Assembly (NCBI GenBank): GCA_964016885.1
Contig: OZ024740.1
Location: 386,756,001 to 386,820,000 of the forward strand
DNA from: Eledone cirrhosa
Taxonomy: Eukaryota
Direction of reading: 5' to 3'
DNA length: 64,000 bases
Under the pieces are notes generated by a model. That model had not been told where the DNA came from. It did not search any database and was given only the letters and a program-made list of their open reading frames with translations. Shown one piece after another: positions 13,021 to 58,848 of the stretch. Position numbers and translations under genes: made by a program. Positions within the stretch are counted from its first letter, which is position 1, and each line of letters begins with the position of its first letter.

Positions 13021-13349
13021 AAGCTTGGTTGTAAAACAAAGGGTATCAACAAAACCCAATACATGAATAGAATGATATATACTTTATTATAGCTGGCCTA
13101 TAATCACTGATGTAGATTTATGGTTATTTTATGGCTACCATAAAGTACACATCATCATCACCATTTAACAGTTATTTTCCATACTTGCATGCTGAGGCTG
13201 GACTAATCAGGTAACTAGGTCCTCATTGTAGGTTCACTTTGGCTCGGTTTCTACATCCAGATGCCCTTCCTAACATCATATGAATATATATATATATAAA
13301 ATAAAATAAAATAAATAAGTCAAATGTTTAAAATTTAGCTTCGTTTATT

Positions 13350-13404
13350 ACTGCTATATATATTTCGGTGACAGCCATCTTTGGCTGTGACCTCTTCAGG
13401 CAGT
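13350..13404 (-). ncRNA. Minimal type I hammerhead ribozyme
   Basis: actgc-CTGAAGA-ggtcacagccaaagatggctgtcacc-GAAA-tatata-TA-gcagt: intact core, 5-bp helix I, 9 of 10 pairs in helix II, palindromic helix III. Confidence 0.85.
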
Positions 13405-13548
13405 TCGAATTACTGTGGTATAGACAAGTACATATGATTCCAGTTCCTCAGTGAAATAACAACCCAACCAGGAACTGGGCATATCAGAGTATTGACAAGG
13501 TTATACACCTCAACAACATATGTACTTGTCTATACCACACTAATTCGG

Positions 13549-13603
13549 ACTGCCTGAAGAGGTCACAGCCAAAGATGGCTGTCACGGAAATATATATAGC
13601 AAT
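13549..13603 (+). ncRNA. Minimal type I hammerhead ribozyme (second arm, slightly decayed)
   Basis: actgc-CTGAAGA-ggtcacagccaaagatggctgtcacg-GAAA-tatata-TA-gcaat. Confidence 0.75.
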
Positions 13604-13751
13604 AATAACCGAAGCTAAATTTTAAACATTTTACTTATTTATTTTATTTTATTTTACATTACTCCGGAGTAACCAAACCAACCTGCACACTTCGTCGTGT
13701 GCTCCAGCCTGCATACTGAGGTGTTGGTATACAACCAACATATACTCAAAA

Positions 13752-15232: not shown

Positions 15233-15728
15233 CTCTATATATATATATTTTGTCTCTCACTCTTTTAAGTTGTGAATTAGACTGGTTATCTACGCACGTG
15301 GCTGACACATTTCAGCTCGCTACTATATTGGTATATAATGGATGATCGCATTTAATGTCCGTTAAAGGTTCTTGGCACTACCATTGTTACCATCGCTTTC
15401 CTCTAGACATGGGGCTTGGAGACATGAACCGAATGCTACCATTCTATTTTATATCAATGTGAACTGCTATTTCTAATGGCCATCTTTTCACCCCTTGATA
15501 ATTTGTGTGTGAGACATGTTGGCTGAGAGATTCTGACAGGAACTAATAGATTGATTCTTTTTAGCTTCCCGTCCCCACGTAAAATTTATAAATCAGTGGC
15601 TAGTTGAGAGATAGAGTCCTATCAGTTGCCAGTTAACCGCTTTACCGTGTCGGTTGTCACAAACAGTCATGACCGGCGCGGGCCGGTGTTTGGATTATGT
15701 CGATCGATTGGTTATTGATTAGGCGATA

Positions 15729-15838
15729 CCCGCTGATGAAGCAGCATAAGCCGATTGTGCATTGTTGCATAATATATGCAGACAGATGGTGCAGTGCACC
15801 TTACTGCTGCATTAGTGCTGCAGAAACTCGAGTCCGGG
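15729..15838 (+). ncRNA. Type I hammerhead motif with greatly expanded helix II
   Basis: cccg-CTGATGA-a-gcagca..(~70 nt)..tgctgc-a-GAAA-ctcgag-TC-cggg; GUC cleavage triplet; lies in a ~740 bp element (15250-15987) bounded by (TA)n. Confidence 0.65.
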
Positions 15839-16985
15839 AACCTTATAGGCACCCGATTTACGTGTGTTGTGTTGAGGCAAATAACTATGTATATACTCTG
15901 GTAATGTATCTTACATTGCCCATTGAGTGCGCTGAGATACAACCGGTACTGGCATTGATAAATATGCTGGGTCTGTCAACCCTTATTATATATATATATA
16001 TCATCATTTCATCATTTCATTTTACGTCCGCTTTTCCCTGCTTGCAAGGGTGGGACGGGAACTGATTCTGGCTTGATTTCTACAGCTGGATGCCCTTCCT
16101 AACAACAACCTCATTTACAGTGAGTGCTGGGTGTTTTTTTGCCGTGGCACCTCCACGTCCACTTTATAGTGTGGGCTGGGTGCTTTTTTTTTGCCGTGGC
16201 ACCTCCACGACCACTTTGCAGTGGAATGATAGGGACCCGAGTCCCTATCATCTCATTTCTACAGCTGAGTAAACTGGACCAATGTGAAATAAAGTGTCTT
16301 GCTCAAGGAAACAACACATCACCCAGTCTGAGAATTGAACTCACAACCTTTCGATTGCAAGGCCAATGCTCTAACCACTAAGCCATGTGCCTCCACTATG
16401 TGTATACACACACACACACACATATATATTATAACACCACCAACGGTTTAGTATGTTTTACTATGCTGGAATGGATTGGATGTATCTACCATGCAGCATA
16501 TTATCATTCATCAGTCTTTCGTCATCATATCTTTGTGGCCCAGCATCTTAAAATCTGGCCTCATACCTCCTTCAACCATTCTCTTCCACAGGTCCTCACT
16601 ATCAACAGTCTATCTCTCTTTCACCCACCTCTCATTGTCCATTCACAGCATATAAGAACAGAGTCAAAGCCATTACTCCTGTCTATACTGACTAAGCAAT
16701 TCAACAGCAGAAAAATAACAAACCAGCAGACAGGCTAATCAAACTAATCAATTCCTTGATCACATCAAGAAAAGAGCCTCTATGTGGTCTCTGAACTTCC
16801 TAGAAATAGCAACAAAATTTACTGTATTTTTTCTCTCCAGACCTAGATATGGATTTGTTCATTTGCTACTTGCTTATAGCAAATTAAACGTGTACACACG
16901 TGTTCTAACCTGAATGATTTGGTAGTAATTTGAAGCAATAAATTGAAATTTACACCATTTTAAAAACAACTACCCTTAAAGCAAT

Positions 16986-18600: not shown

Positions 18601-18921
18601 CTGCACTATGGTGATAATATGACAGGGGTTAAGTATCCAGATCATTTGCTGGGTAGCCAACTTAAAACCTAGTTCAATGCCAAATACTAAGCAATGTGTG
18701 ATGAGCAAAAATCTTTTCGTTATTGAAGTTCGTTCGATCCATTTTGGAAACCGTTTTGGTATGACAATACTTTTATATCCGCGAGTTATAAACTTTATGG
18801 AAATCACCATTGCAAAAATACTTTCCACGACACGCTGAAATCCACTGAGGAATTTCAGACAATCACGACCCCCATTTCCAGGGATATTATAGTCCACGCC
18901 TGCGTAGGTCCAGTCTAACAT
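18601..18921 (-). CDS. TMEM164: First coding exon of transmembrane protein 164 (107 codons, ends in phase 0); whole exon 18601-18952
   Basis: Translation MLDWTYAGVDYNIPGNGGRDCLKFLSGFQRVVES...LLITHCLVFGIELGFKLATQQMIWILNPCHIITIVQ matches the recalled TMEM164 N-terminus ([49 protein letters not shown]). Acceptor ttttttctcttcttctttag|G at 18953/18952; donor CAG|gtaagg at 18601/18600. The supplied ORF runs on into intron. Confidence 0.95.
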
Positions 18922-21231
18922 GATGAAACTATTAAATAAACTTCTTAAATGCCTAAAGAAGAAGAGAAAAAAATGGTAAGAAATATATAATCATCATGAT
19001 TTAAATTTTAATATTAGGATTATTATTGTCATCAACATTATGTTTTCAAGTGGATTCATGTGAGGAAAGAAATTATTATTATTACTTAGAAAAAAAAGGA
19101 AAATTAGAAAAAAATAAAAGAAATGATTATTATTATTTAGCTTAGCAGTGGATTGGCAGTATCGGTAGAGCGTCAGACACCATGCTCTGCAGCATAGAGA
19201 TATGGCCCTTATAGGGTTGATAAAATAAAGCACCAATAATGCACTGGAGTAATTGCTGGCCTTGTGCCAAAAGTAGAAACAATTATTTAGCTTTGCCTTT
19301 CATCCTTACAGGGCGGATAAAATAATGTACCAGTCATGCACTGGGGTCGATTTAATTGACTTTCCCCTCCACCCAAAATTGTTGGCCTTGTACCTAAATC
19401 AGAAATCATTACTATTATTATTATAATTAGGGCAGTGGATTGGCAGTATCTGGAGAGTGTCTGATAACATGCTTAGCGGCATAGTGTTACGGCCCTTTAT
19501 GTTCTGAATTCAAATCCCACCGAGGTTAGCTTTGCCTTTCATCCTTATGGGGTCAATGATATAGAGTACCAGTAATGTACTGGGGAATTTAATCGACTAT
19601 CCCCCCTTCAAATTGCTGGCCTTGTGCCTAAAGTAGAAACAATTATCATTATTATTATTAAAGTTGGTAGGTAAGTAGTTACAATCATTTACATTTAGAG
19701 TTCAGCTTCTGCTGTAACTGATTGAGTTTCATCCCCCTGAGGTCAGAAAAAAGTATCAGTAATCTACTAGGGTTAATTTGATTAATTATACTCAGCCCCT
19801 ACAAATTTAGAGGCTTGTTCTAAAGTTGGAAATGATTTCTGCTGAATTAGAGTAGCAGTTCAGTTAAGGTGCTTGTGGTCTGGCTCAGACCAGATATCCA
19901 GATAGATAAAAACTTGGAAGCAGTCGTGAACAGGGTGGCCACTCTAACTTAGAAATAGGCTGGAAGTAAACCATCCTTGAAAATTCAGCTGGAAGTAGTT
20001 AATGTTTGTATCATTTAAGTGGTTTACTATCATCTGACCATGATGCCTTGCCCTAGAAAATATCTGACCAAATTGAAGCATATGCTCTTTTGCTTTTTGT
20101 GGAAAGAACAGACTCCACTGGTTATAGAGAGCATCTGTAACCAATTCTCACTACAAAGTGTTCTTAGCATGTTGTGACCTATAGATGGTCCTAGAATGAT
20201 GACAGACACTCACAATACTCTACAAGCTAGACCATATGGTTAATGGAAAATCAACCCTCACATCCTATAGAGGCTCAGTGGAGAGCATGAGCAATGATGA
20301 CCCTGGGAACGATTCTGGACATTGACAAAAACAGTCTGAGCAGTAACCTCTGGATGACTTTCAAGTTGGAGATTATGGACAATTTCCAAAGCTCCTTGGC
20401 TTAGCAATACTAGATGAATGGTGGGTGGATGGTGAAGAATTTGCCTGTTAGAAATAAATTCTACAGGCATAAGTTGAAACAATAGCTAGAATACAACTAG
20501 TGGTCAAAGTAATTTTTGTAAATTGAAGTGGTAGCTCTCACAGCAGAATGTTCCAATAGAAGCAAATGAGTAAAGCATACATCGTTCTAAATTCTGAAAT
20601 TAAAATAGCAATTTTGCATTAAGACTTATTGGAGAAATCACATCCTGAAGATGATGTACACCAAAGTAAAAAAAAATCTGAAACCGAAATTAGAAAATGG
20701 CTAAGAATGGTGATTCAGTTTGACTGATTAACATGTCATCTAGAAACAAGACACGAATTTTAAAAGCCAAAAGTAGAGACATTTACTAACCTATGTATCT
20801 TTTTAATGATATATAGCATGTTTCCATTCTAGATACAGGTTTATGTATAAATGAATGTTTGAGAAAAGCCTTATTCTTGTAAATTTACAGCAGAAGTTAG
20901 TCTGCGCAAGATTTTTCAAAATGATAGTTTGTTCTAAATTCAAGTATTGAAATAAAACTAGCCAGAAATACAAATATATGAATTAGTTTTACACATACAC
21001 ATAAATATATAAAGAAAAAGAAATAAAATTGTGTGATGCTGGTACATGATGACCCTGTGCATACACAGGCAAAGCTCTAGAGTAACAGGACTTTAACTTG
21101 ACTTAATATATACCATCATCACCATCACCATGCCTATGATTGACAGTTGGTATTTGACCCCAAGACACATCTAGTCAAACATACTTAATATCAGGGACAA
21201 TCTGGCCATGGTTATTCTATCTTAATATTAG

Positions 21232-43156: not shown

Positions 43157-44200
43157 TAACTAAGAACATAGATTTTACATGTGGCCGGTGCTCTGGTGCA
43201 ATAAGTAGCAGTAAGTGCCCACACAATACTAGCTCTTTCAATTGCGCAGAGGGTTCTATAGAAAGAGTGGACAGCTTCCGTTACCTGGGTGACAAAATCA
43301 GCAGTGGGGGAAGGTGCTCTGAAAGTACAGTAGCTAGAGTCAGAACTGGATGGAAAAAGTTCAGAGAGCTTTTTCTCCCTAAAAATGAAAAGCAGGTTGT
43401 ATGATGCCTGCATACGAACAGCAATGTTGCATAGCAGTGAGACCTGGGCATTGTGTGCAGAGGATATACGCAGACTAGAGAGGAACGAAGCTTGCATGCT
43501 CCACTGGATGTGTAATAGTAATATACGTGAACGGCAAAGCATTAACGAACTAAGGGAAAAATTAGAAATAAGAGGGATCAGATGTTGTTTACTCGAGAGA
43601 AGGCTACGTTGGTATGGTCACGTGATGCGCATGAAAGACGACAGCTGTATAAAAAAGTGCAGGGCAATAAAGATGGACGGTAGCCACGGAGTAGGCAGAC
43701 CCAGAAAAACCTGGGACGACTTGATAAATTCCGACCTCACACACTTACACCTCTCCAAGACAATGTCACTGGACCGAGACCTTTGGCGGTACTCAGTAAT
43801 AGAGAAGAGTCGCCTTACCTAAATACAAAGTAAAACCTACTACAGTCAGTAGGCATCTCTAACAAAATACACACCCGTCCCACCACCCCCACCGCCCCTT
43901 TCAATGTAAAGTTATGTTGGTGCCACAACATCCAGGCCGAAACAAATGAGGTCGTGTAGGTGTCACGACAAAAAAAAAACACAGTCCAAGCTGTAATGTG
44001 GCCGTGTAGGCAACACGGTAAAAACCTCCCAGTCCCACACTGTAAATGTGGTTGGTGTCAGGAAGGGCATCCAGCCGTAGAAAACCCGCCAGACAGTCCT
44101 ATGCGAGCAAGACAATCACTCTTGCCTCAAGTGGGAAAACTCCTGTCCAAACCCATGCAAGCGTGGAATATGGACGTTAAACGATGATGATGATGATGAT
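43157..44200 (+). mobile_element. 5'-truncated RTE LINE (left arm of inverted pair)
   Basis: ORF 43385-43822 nearly identical to the 826-1654 C-terminus; small deletion near 43371; (GAT)n tail. Confidence 0.92.
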
Positions 44201-44210
44201 ATGTATATAT

Positions 44211-45224
44211 ATCATCATCATCATCATCATTGTTTAACGTCCATATTCCACGCTTGCATGGGTTTGGACAGGAGTTTTCCCACTTGAGGCAAGAGTGGTT
44301 GTCTTGCTCGCATAGGACTGTCTAGCAGGTTTTCTACGGCTAGATGCCCTTCCTGACACCAACCACATTTACAGTGTGGGACTGGGAGGTTTTTACCGTG
44401 TTGCCTACACAGCCACATTACAGCGTGGACTGTGTGTTTTTTTTGTCGTGACACCTACACGACCTCATTTGTTTCGGCCTGGATGTTGTGGCACCAACAT
44501 AACTTTACATTGAAAGGGGCGGTGTGGATGGGGTGGGGTGGGGGTGGAGGGACGGGTGTGTATTTTGTTAGAGATGCCTACTGACTGTAGTAGGTTTTAC
44601 TTTGTATTTAGGTAAGGCAGCTCTTCTCTATTACTGAGTACCGCCAAAGATCTCGGTCCAGTGACATTGTCTTGGAGAGGTGTAAGTGTGTGAGGTCGGA
44701 ATTTATCAGGTCGTCCCAGGTTTTTCTGGGTCTGCCTACTCCGTGGCTACCGTCTATCTTTATTGCCCTGCACTTTTTTATACAGCTGTCGTCTTTCATG
44801 CGCATCACGTGACCATACCAACGTAGCCTTCTCTCGACTAAACAACATCTGATCCCTCTTATTTCTAATTTTTCCCTTAGTTCGTTTATGCTTTGCCGTT
44901 CGTGTATATTACTATTACACATCCAGCGGAGCATGCAAGCTTCGTTCCTCTCTAGTCTGCGTATATCCTCTGCACACAATGCCCAGGTCTCACTGCCATG
45001 CAACATTGCTATTCGTATGCAGGCATCATACAGCCTGCCTTTCATTTTTAGGGAGAACCCTTTAGCGGCTAATAGTGGTATAAGCTCTCTGAACTTTTTC
45101 CATCCAGTTCTGACTCTAGCTACTGTACTTTCAGAGCACCCTCCCCCACTGCTGATTTTGTCACCCAGGTAACGGAGGCTGTCCACTATATCTATAGAAC
45201 CGTCTGCGCAATTGAAAGAGCTAG

Positions 45225-45228
<4 letters not shown>
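44211..45228 (-). mobile_element. 5'-truncated RTE LINE (right arm of inverted pair)
   Basis: ORF 44608-45186 is an open RTE C-terminus; tail-to-tail with the previous copy. Confidence 0.92.
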
Positions 45229-57442: not shown

Positions 57443-57920
57443 CTAGCCGAATTACCAGCGCCTTGCTGCATTTCACACTTTTTTTTGTAAGAAAATGTTG
57501 ATTGATTTTATATCAGTGATATAATTTATGGAGAAAAACTCTGCATTTCAATATTACTCAATGTAAAATGTAATGCATGAAAAATTGGAAAACATTATTT
57601 TTTGTAATACATCCAATCAAAATTACATTATTAAATCTTATTCTTATTTTGTTTCTTGTAAATAATTCTTTTCAAAATATCAATTCAAAATTTTTGTGAA
57701 TAGGCATCATATCTTGTCGTTTACCTATGGTTTAAATTTCATATAAATTGAAGGGAAAAATTTTTCAGCGAGGGTTTGTGCCCCCCAGGGAAAACTGCTT
57801 ACCAGAGAATTTGACTTGACGGTATTCTTTGAATCATATAGCATAAATATTGAAGCAGGGGAATATGGTATATAGGTCCAGAAGACATCACGAAGTATAT
57901 CATATAAGCAAGTATTGCAC
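57443..57920 (-). mobile_element. Helitron-like 3' end
   Basis: a|CTAGccgaattaccagcgccttgctgc (hairpin cagc..gctg next to CTAG) following (TA)n; right boundary uncertain. Confidence 0.4.
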
Positions 57921-57924
57921 CATG

Positions 57925-58232
57925 AAAATATAAACTTCAGCGAGAAAGGAAGTTAGGAATTTATTTGCTTTAACATATGTTTCTGTGTCTATATATGCTG
58001 ACTACAATATGTATTGTTCAATCATATGCAATACTTAATTATTTATCACACTTCTTCAGTGTAGTGGATAGTCACTTCCTCAAACAATTATAAGCTTTCT
58101 GAAGAAGTGTGATAAATAATAGTATTCCATATGATTGAACAATATATATTGTAGACAATTATGATAGACACAGAAACATATGTTAAAGCAAATAAATTCC
58201 TAACTTCCTTTCTTGGCGAAGTTTATATTTTT
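57925..58232. mobile_element. Fold-back Penelope-like terminal element
   Basis: Arms 57925-58059 and 58099-58232 are reverse complements around a 39-bp spacer. Confidence 0.8.
58094..58189 (+). ncRNA. Type I hammerhead motif with expanded helix II
   Basis: gcttt-CTGAAGA-a-gtgt..(~57 nt)..acac-a-GAAA-catatg-TT-aaagc; 5-bp helix I, palindromic helix III, GUU site. Confidence 0.65.
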
Positions 58233-58848
58233 CTTGGTACAATAATTGCTTATATATAAATATATATGACTTTTCATAAAATTGTAGGTAGCTCACTGTG
58301 GTGGGTAGCAAATAGCTGATTACCATATGCATAGCAAAGAGTCGGGTTAAAATATAAACACATATTGAGCAGAGGAACGGAGAGAGGGAGAGAATAGAAG
58401 AAAGAGAGTCTAAAGCATAAGATGAGAAATGAAAGGGGTAAAAGCAGGAATGAGATCGATAGAGCAAAAATTTTGGAGAATTGCGATAGAGGGAGAGGTA
58501 AAAATTGATAGATACAAAGTGAAAGTAGCAGCAGCAGCAGCGGTAGTAGTAACATGGGAGAGCCATTTTGGCTTTTAAATTGTAACTCTTTCTCTATCTG
58601 CTTATTTTGGTCTCTCTTTCTCTCCCTTTCTATCTATCTACAATAATGTTTCTACTTTTGGCACAAGGCCAGTAATTACCCCAGTGCATTACTGGTGCAT
58701 TATTTTATCGACCACGTAAGGATGAAAGGCAAAGTTAACCTCGGCGGGATTTGAATTCAGAACGTAAAGGGACATGATTATATGTTGTCTGACGCTCTAC
58801 TGATACTGCCAATCCACCGCCCTTTAGCATTAATAATATATTTAGCAT

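Follow-up and report, generated by a model that had tools for sequence, protein, structure and literature searches.

The window analysed here, a 64-kb stretch of the Eledone cirrhosa genome, contains at 15729–15838 a putative hammerhead ribozyme with a very long helix II, which raises the questions of whether the motif is real, what carries it and what its long arm contributes. The type I core residues C3–A9, G12–A15.1, U16.1 and H17 are all present and are enclosed by three helices, of which helix I is open; the sequence reads as a complete type I hammerhead whose arm from A9 to G12 runs to 83 nt, three times the usual length (Table 1). A scan requiring the core, a palindromic helix III and a minimum of 4 bp in each of helices I and II identified two such motifs in the window (15729–15838 and 58099–58184), against none in 200 dinucleotide shuffles. 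The core (CUGAUGA/GAAA), helix I (CCCG/CGGG), palindromic helix III, helix II enclosing about 70 nt and non-chance origin claimed in the preliminary description were all confirmed in this way. Rfam detected no hammerhead over the 64-kb window, and on 361 nt around the motif gave a partial match of 15.2 bits, below the gathering score of 37, as expected from the long insert.

Table 1 Features of the two long-arm hammerhead loci (window positions).
Feature	Position	Strand	Remark
Family A copy, solitary, 5'-truncated, about unit nt 103–841	15247–15989	+	(TA)n on both sides
Candidate pseudoknot strand GGCG	15722–15725	+	Could pair with junction 15749–15752; a lead only
Helix I 5' strand CCCG	15729–15732	+	Sequence reading and scan
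Catalytic box C3–A9, CTGATGA (CUGAUGA)	15733–15739	+	Core intact in 55/66 copies
Domain II, 83 nt, A9 to G12	15740–15822	+	Predicted three-way junction
Base mismatch A15740/A15822	15740/15822	+	Precedes 7-bp helix II
Helix II GCAGCA(T)/(G)TGCTGC	15741–15747/15815–15821	+	Encloses about 70 nt
Hairpin a of domain II (predicted)	15754–15773	+	Minimum-energy and centroid fold
Hairpin b of domain II, includes ggtgcagtgcacc (predicted)	15776–15812	+	Fold prediction
GAAA box	15823–15826	+	Sequence reading
Palindromic helix III ACTCGAGT, 8 nt	15826–15833	+	Also written ACUCGAGU
C17, predicted cleavage site 3' of it	15834	+	Sequence reading
Helix I 3' strand CGGG	15835–15838	+	Sequence reading
Inverted 5'-truncated family B partner	57896–58059	-	Own core 58059–57972, without helix I 5' strand
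Hydra-type PLE fragment with family B hammerhead at 3' end	58060–58267	+	
Family B long-arm hammerhead	58094–58189 (scan 58099–58184)	+	67 nt here after deletion

The interior of domain II is predicted to form a three-way junction with two hairpins (-36.1 kcal/mol, z -3.2). Two sub-hairpins had been proposed for it, of which ggtgcagtgcacc was recovered with a pair probability of about 1.0, whereas tgcataatatatgca was absent from the minimum-energy, centroid and five lowest folds (pair probability 0.0) and was rejected, its halves being distributed to hairpins a and b in the predicted fold. Hairpin a also appears in the folds predicted for 13 out of 18 other copies of the surrounding repeat, termed family A. 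The opposed A residues with which helix II opens are present as described but are no special feature, since the opposing bases in 66 family A copies are A/A in 39, A/C in 24 and A/U in three, and U/U is already published (PMC8557442). A natural U/U at 10.1/11.1 has also been reported (PMC3088659). Opposing bases at this position are neither new nor fixed.

Family A is a non-coding repeat of about 831 nt (units of 831–880 nt) with 2,591 first-look candidates in the genome, the best 40 of which are 97–100% identical; older subfamilies are 68–80% identical. At least 513 copies match the core and helix II base exactly (control, 0). The core conservation expected among genomic copies was found, the complete core being kept in 55 of 66, and position 17 is C in 42, U in 22 and G in two. 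The best-kept internal part of the unit is the stretch with the 5' core (76–88%, against 44–74% just upstream). Two helix II pairs switch on both sides between subfamilies: 15743/15819 is C-G in 31 and A-U in 16 copies but broken or wobble in 19 (C/U nine, A/G four, U-G four, other two), and 15744/15818 is A-U in 30 and G-C in 28. The hairpin b pair 15787/15801 is U/U in 34 and G-C in 22. The proposed covariation of helices I and II was thus seen for helix II in family A and for both helices across families (below), but helix I had no two-sided change within the 66 copies. Judged from the copies, the family A covariation reflects few events passed on to many descendants. A helix I extension (15720-23/15842-45) was rejected; it has G-C/G-U variation in two subfamilies and one strand is lost in older copies.

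Thirty family A loci have a common 3' end and staggered 5' ends. Insertions terminate at a TA run a median of 152 nt past the cut site (run at ≤400 nt in 70 of 74 copies). Of 30 loci sampled, 24 had a parsed end, and in 22 of these it is followed by a TA run. Head-to-tail units were identified in five loci (L015, L017, L237, L239 and L254), with two hammerheads in tandem in L015, L237 and L254. Family A has the repeat structure of a non-LTR retrozyme, namely a non-coding unit with one type I hammerhead and at least two units in tandem, and also the partial tandems of pLTR type, 5' truncation and (TA)n targets of Penelope-like elements (PLEs) of the Hydra clade. The 831–880-nt units have no similarity to Hydra proteins, including the reverse transcriptase (RT) and endonuclease, at E<0.03, and family A is thus regarded as non-autonomous. 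None of the family A loci examined runs unbroken into a Hydra ORF and no autonomous parent was found among them, so that the clade is assigned from shared features.

The long-arm design is not confined to family A. The genome-wide pattern CTGANGAWN{78,96}WGAAACNNNNGTY gave 4,807 + 4,779 = 9,586 matches, against 47 + 56 = 103 for the reversed pattern used as control. Such counts can be swollen by a single repeat, as was seen for spacers of 50–79 nt, and a check was therefore made of the first 30 loci, which lie on contig C1 without exception and are not a random draw: helix III was palindromic in 29, the base mismatch was present in 28, helix II had at least 4 bp in 24 and helix I at least 3 bp in 21. 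Spacers of 99–128 nt gave 7,919 matches (control, 688), and 11 of 12 fetched loci belonged to one 116-nt family. The 10,812 matches with 50–79-nt spacers were mostly coincidence in LINE coding sequence and were excluded from the count. The coding sequence of one abundant repeat (L181-L192), by eye likely a LINE RT region, mimics the core pattern by chance. In 464 kb of unselected DNA the strict scan found the window's two long motifs only, together with 11 short ones; searching 504 kb with a model brought in the inverted family B partner as well as two more long motifs; these finds agree with about one long-arm motif per 300 kb. Clustering yielded a dozen or more long-arm sequence families of 78–116 nt. 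Domain II lengths in the genome fall at 12–14, 26–36, 43–65, 78–97 and 102–116 nt. The sequence evidence indicates that thousands of related long-arm hammerheads fill the genome and are missed by standard searches. The earlier suggestions that the motif recurs in unrelated sequence and that length-capped searches would miss a PLE-type hammerhead with a long insert have held up, the latter both for Rfam and for published descriptor limits (PMC4209133).

Further hammerhead families with 59–65-nt domain II were noted (L175, L205, L206, L214, L208 and L209); those of 59–60 nt mostly have G-C at the base, without mismatch. Family C (L109, L119 and L120; G000:C5:42060071-42062320) is a 994-nt non-coding unit with an internal duplication of about 250 nt, and L120 is a trimer with three tandem hammerheads and units 99.3–99.8% identical.

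Several long-arm families are linked to ORFs. Two same-strand long-arm hammerheads lie round an RT-endonuclease ORF in L164 (3,564 nt apart) and L161 (3,294 nt apart), and in L161, L162 and L164 a single ORF, broken by frameshift or insertion, holds the RT and, behind it, a C-terminal endonuclease. Further copies or families are linked to RT-endonuclease ORFs in L162, L163, L166, L178, L180 and L196. The linked ORFs carry RWK/RWR (RWR in L196), DKT and CxCx5C, which are Hydra hallmarks (PMC8557442); the absence of CCHH was judged by eye. As Pfam gave no match to these ORFs, the assignment is one made from motifs and from by-eye comparison with the Hydra rows of the PMC8557442 supplement. By these assignments long-arm hammerheads occupy both terminal repeats of full-length Hydra-clade PLEs. 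A link to Naiad was rejected; the linked ORFs are Hydra-type, with a C-terminal and not an N-terminal endonuclease. Families A and C have units of 743–994 nt, two-hairpin interiors and no ORF, and their Hydra link is for this reason one that we infer.

Two side observations concern other Hydra elements and their ends. Loci L373-L402 (e.g. G000:C1:11230783; arrays at C1:437198629-437213202) represent a very young Hydra PLE family with 150 scored copies at 99%, open frames of up to about 790 aa and tandem units of about 3.5 kb; its hammerhead, by eye, has a U3-A8 core, a domain II of about 54 nt and a long helix III, and its endonuclease query gave 64,415 first-look candidates. In most families with a rod-type arm (described below; L134, L141, L171, L178, L036 and others), but not in families A and C, AATAAA occurs immediately 3' of helix I, no more than about 10 nt beyond the cut, and it is possible that cleavage is coupled to polyadenylation.

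Hammerheads of Hydra-clade PLEs are known (PMC8557442) and resemble those described here in being type I, in lying near the 3' end or in a pLTR, in their (TA)n targets, in a palindromic helix III of similar size and in the mismatch with which stem II begins. Those 26 rows (File S2), however, have at most 26 nt from A9 to G12, with U/U at the base in 14, whereas here the arm is 83 nt (78–116 nt in sister families), is branched or multi-helix and has A/A or A/C at its base. The longest entry in the accessible part of that work has about 54 nt and is not from Hydra, and its core search used spacers of 7–17 nt. An 11-nt motif search of its supplement for long-arm helix III words found none, apart from one unrelated coding match, although line breaks may hide some. 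The Naiad_Ovul 3' end in the same supplement has a hairpin and then GAAA preceding CUGAUGA, the reverse of the type I order; what the authors labelled a 'half core' may thus be a hammerhead in permuted form. The minimal PLE hammerheads (PMC4209133) share a short helix I, a palindromic helix III, an extra base after A9, opposite-strand motif pairs and predicted action as dimers. Their 2014 descriptor, by contrast, specifies a stem II of 3–7 bp and a loop 2 of 3–10 nt, with an extra base allowed on each side, and the long-arm families vary G10.1–C11.1. Ribozymes are unmentioned in the accessible main text of PMC13282606.

The non-LTR retrozymes of animals (PMC7229834; bioRxiv 10.64898/2026.07.22.740005) are likewise non-coding low-GC units with one type I hammerhead, occur as monomers and head-to-tail repeats, and have a proposed dependence on PLEs, to which they have been tied (bioRxiv 10.64898/2026.07.22.740005); the 831 nt of family A lie inside their reported range of 51–972 bp. 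Family A differs in consisting mostly of dispersed 5'-truncated copies and not long arrays, and in its oversized, non-canonical ribozyme. Like the hammerhead of the Anolis Poseidon element PAc (PMC11167929), that of family A lies upstream of a fixed 3' end and RT start and may depend on protein; PAc, however, is of another clade and its hammerhead overlaps an ORF start, while family A has no ORF.

The literature searched yielded no description of a PLE hammerhead whose domain II spans 80–116 nt, although prior art may lie outside it. The motifs appear to be an abundant, covarying new structural variant of PLE hammerheads. Descriptors with 10–17-nt limits (PMC4209133; PMC8557442) and Rfam can miss thousands of such motifs in one animal genome, and claims of hammerhead-free PLE clades therefore deserve a re-search with long spacers.

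The explanation that we consider probable is that the locus carries an 83-nt-arm hammerhead in a Hydra-dependent, retrozyme-like repeat, which cuts slowly and mainly when paired or helped by protein. The repeat of about 831 nt would be a non-autonomous passenger of Hydra-clade PLEs, borrowing their RT and endonuclease. Tandem copies would give multimeric transcripts that are cleaved to unit length and perhaps circularised; the hammerhead would cut this RNA after C15834, probably slowly, acting chiefly once the palindromic helix III joins two copies or the protein of the element aids folding. Reverse transcription would start about 150 nt downstream of the cut. The long arm would be a kept structural extension, for tertiary docking, protein binding or both, and not a stray insertion.

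Two considerations would favour a ribozyme that is held back. The predicted monomer has a helix III of 2 bp closed by a tetraloop, and in 15700–15870 its active fold is 8.6 kcal/mol less stable than the minimum-energy fold; the duplex of two palindromes in a dimer is predicted at -10.7 kcal/mol. In addition, insertions reach a family-specific end 60–190 nt past the cut site, and the template is therefore expected to be either uncut at the 3' hammerhead or a ligated circle, which in turn favours a held-back ribozyme that fires in multimers or with protein help. Such behaviour would fit that of axolotl retrozymes, in which dimers outperform monomers (PMC7229834), and of the Anolis PLE, whose hammerhead cleaves only with the element's protein (PMC11167929). 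Speaking against it, hammerhead mutants of the Anolis element had no insertion defect in vitro (PMC11167929), and eight of nine Xenopus retrozyme dimers did not cleave (bioRxiv 10.64898/2026.07.22.740005). PLE hammerheads cut poorly alone, and one needs the protein of its element; a large covarying arm provides a concrete part to delete and to test for protein binding or tertiary docking.

A more specific idea, which we regard as tentative and rather doubtful, is that Hydra-clade PLEs of this lineage evolved a natural allosteric hammerhead whose 80–116-nt arm binds the telomerase-like RT, with cleavage switched on after the template is engaged. If so, today's searches would all have overlooked about ten thousand gated ribozymes in one genome, and arms of this kind may be the reason why some PLE groups have been described as lacking hammerheads.

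It is unlikely that the arm is instead an RNA signal for binding or template recognition by the element RT, the core being kept for its fold while cutting matters little. The rod-type arms contain an inner module, RY[A]UUK/UAGRY, followed by a 6–7-bp helix, a 2x1 loop and a hairpin, and this module recurs, with covarying pairs, in families that share about 40–75% endonuclease identity. In an alignment of 13 sequences (four of 17 were misaligned by MAFFT and dropped) 85.9% of cells were paired, against 76.4 ± 1.0, and both bases change in 15 of the 29 pairs; relatedness was ignored and the structure was drawn from the same sequences on which pairing was scored. Unguided RNAalifold on all 17 rows recovered eight inner pairs only. 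In a held-out test the 13-sequence model aligned three of the dropped rows through the bulged-A module at 38–44 bits. The family-specific insertion ends would also suit an RT signal, and uncut RNA is the main template in Anolis (PMC11167929). On the other hand, every catalytic base is retained, and 64 of 66 copies have a base other than G at position 17. Families A and C, moreover, have been amplified to thousands of copies without the rod module: family C scored 26–31 bits with the model, its interior being skipped, and family A about 15–24 bits, and according to the model the family A interior, at 16.7–23.9 bits, does not fit the rod of the autonomous families. An alternative family A fold containing the bulged-A module was dropped (pair probability 0).

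Also quite unlikely in our estimate is a fast, self-sufficient monomer in which the long arm provides a stem I–stem II pseudoknot (15749–15752/15722–15725) and needs neither partner nor protein. Pseudoknots of this type are present in about 40% of natural hammerheads (PMC3088659), and coral and mussel retrozymes cleave as single copies (PMC7229834). The GGC(G)/(C)GCC pairing is retained in family A (G-C 59/62, G-C 55/62 and C-G 51/62), its fourth pair being G-C in 28/62 and G/A in 26/62, and in family C a UGGGC/GCCCA pairing occupies almost the same register (28–33/33 per pair). Against this, the candidate pseudoknot of 5' flank and junction (3–6 bp) has no two-sided change in family A or C, has 3 bp only in the window copy and over 21 families is not above chance (8.81 vs 8.52; 1385/5000). 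The 2-bp helix III, the purine–purine opposition at which helix II starts and the competing fold also speak against a fast monomer.

A neutral origin, in which domain II tolerates insertions and hairpins piled up, being kept only because they fold out of the way, is very unlikely. The domain II lengths are graded within one genome, from 12–14 to 102–116 nt, interiors differ and deleted copies exist (67 nt at 58099). In the endonuclease tree (30 fragments, in-genome sequences only) family B and the 105–116-nt families join weakly (46/5), so that the long-arm lineages are not supported as one clade. However, lengths cluster at 78–97 nt in many unrelated families, inner helices covary with the bulged A retained, and the 81–92-nt families other than B form a clade with 99/97 support, the 36- and ~54-nt families falling outside it. 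The outer helices pair across families. At fixed positions in 12 of 13 family representatives (L159 was mis-parsed inside), 40 of 48 helix I cells were paired (null, 28.7), as were 52 of 60 helix II cells (null, 37.2); 0 of 5000 shuffles reached this, relatedness being ignored. G10.1–C11.1 is not kept, the first helix II pair varying across long-arm families.

That the motif matches by chance, or is a regulatory ribozyme of the host in view of its position within a TMEM164-like gene, can be set aside, since the shuffles refute chance, the motif lies in a repeat whose best 40 copies are nearly identical, it is antisense to the gene, and none of 80 examined matches to a similar pattern in a metagenome folds like a hammerhead. 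Those 80, from at least 118 matches, also had no Hydra ORF, and viral contigs contained no relative of the RT. The gene was named through PDB 9lw1, which matches an exon at about 18640–18936 (-) with E 3e-15; the Pfam TMEM164 model gave no match, and further TMEM164-like exons lie about 3.6 (by motif scan) and 20.7 kb before the window start. The family A window copy, being solitary, 5'-truncated and antisense within an intron of this gene, is probably inert and likely a dead-on-arrival insertion.

The second long motif, in family B, had been described as a recurrence of the same design. It is a real motif in unrelated sequence and the outer design is the same, but the interior is not, being rod-like with the bulged-A module where that of family A is a predicted three-way junction. 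The family B arm has 81–83 nt in most copies, and in L032 and L035 the motif lies about 490 nt past endonuclease remnants.

The window also contains an inverted pair of ordinary short hammerheads at 13355–13399 (-) and 13554–13598 (+), with a 26-nt domain II and a TATATA palindrome, within an inverted repeat at 13294–13659. LINE-like fragments, which we take to be RTE-type, were found at 764–2050 and 43207–45228, including a large inverted pair round 44200.
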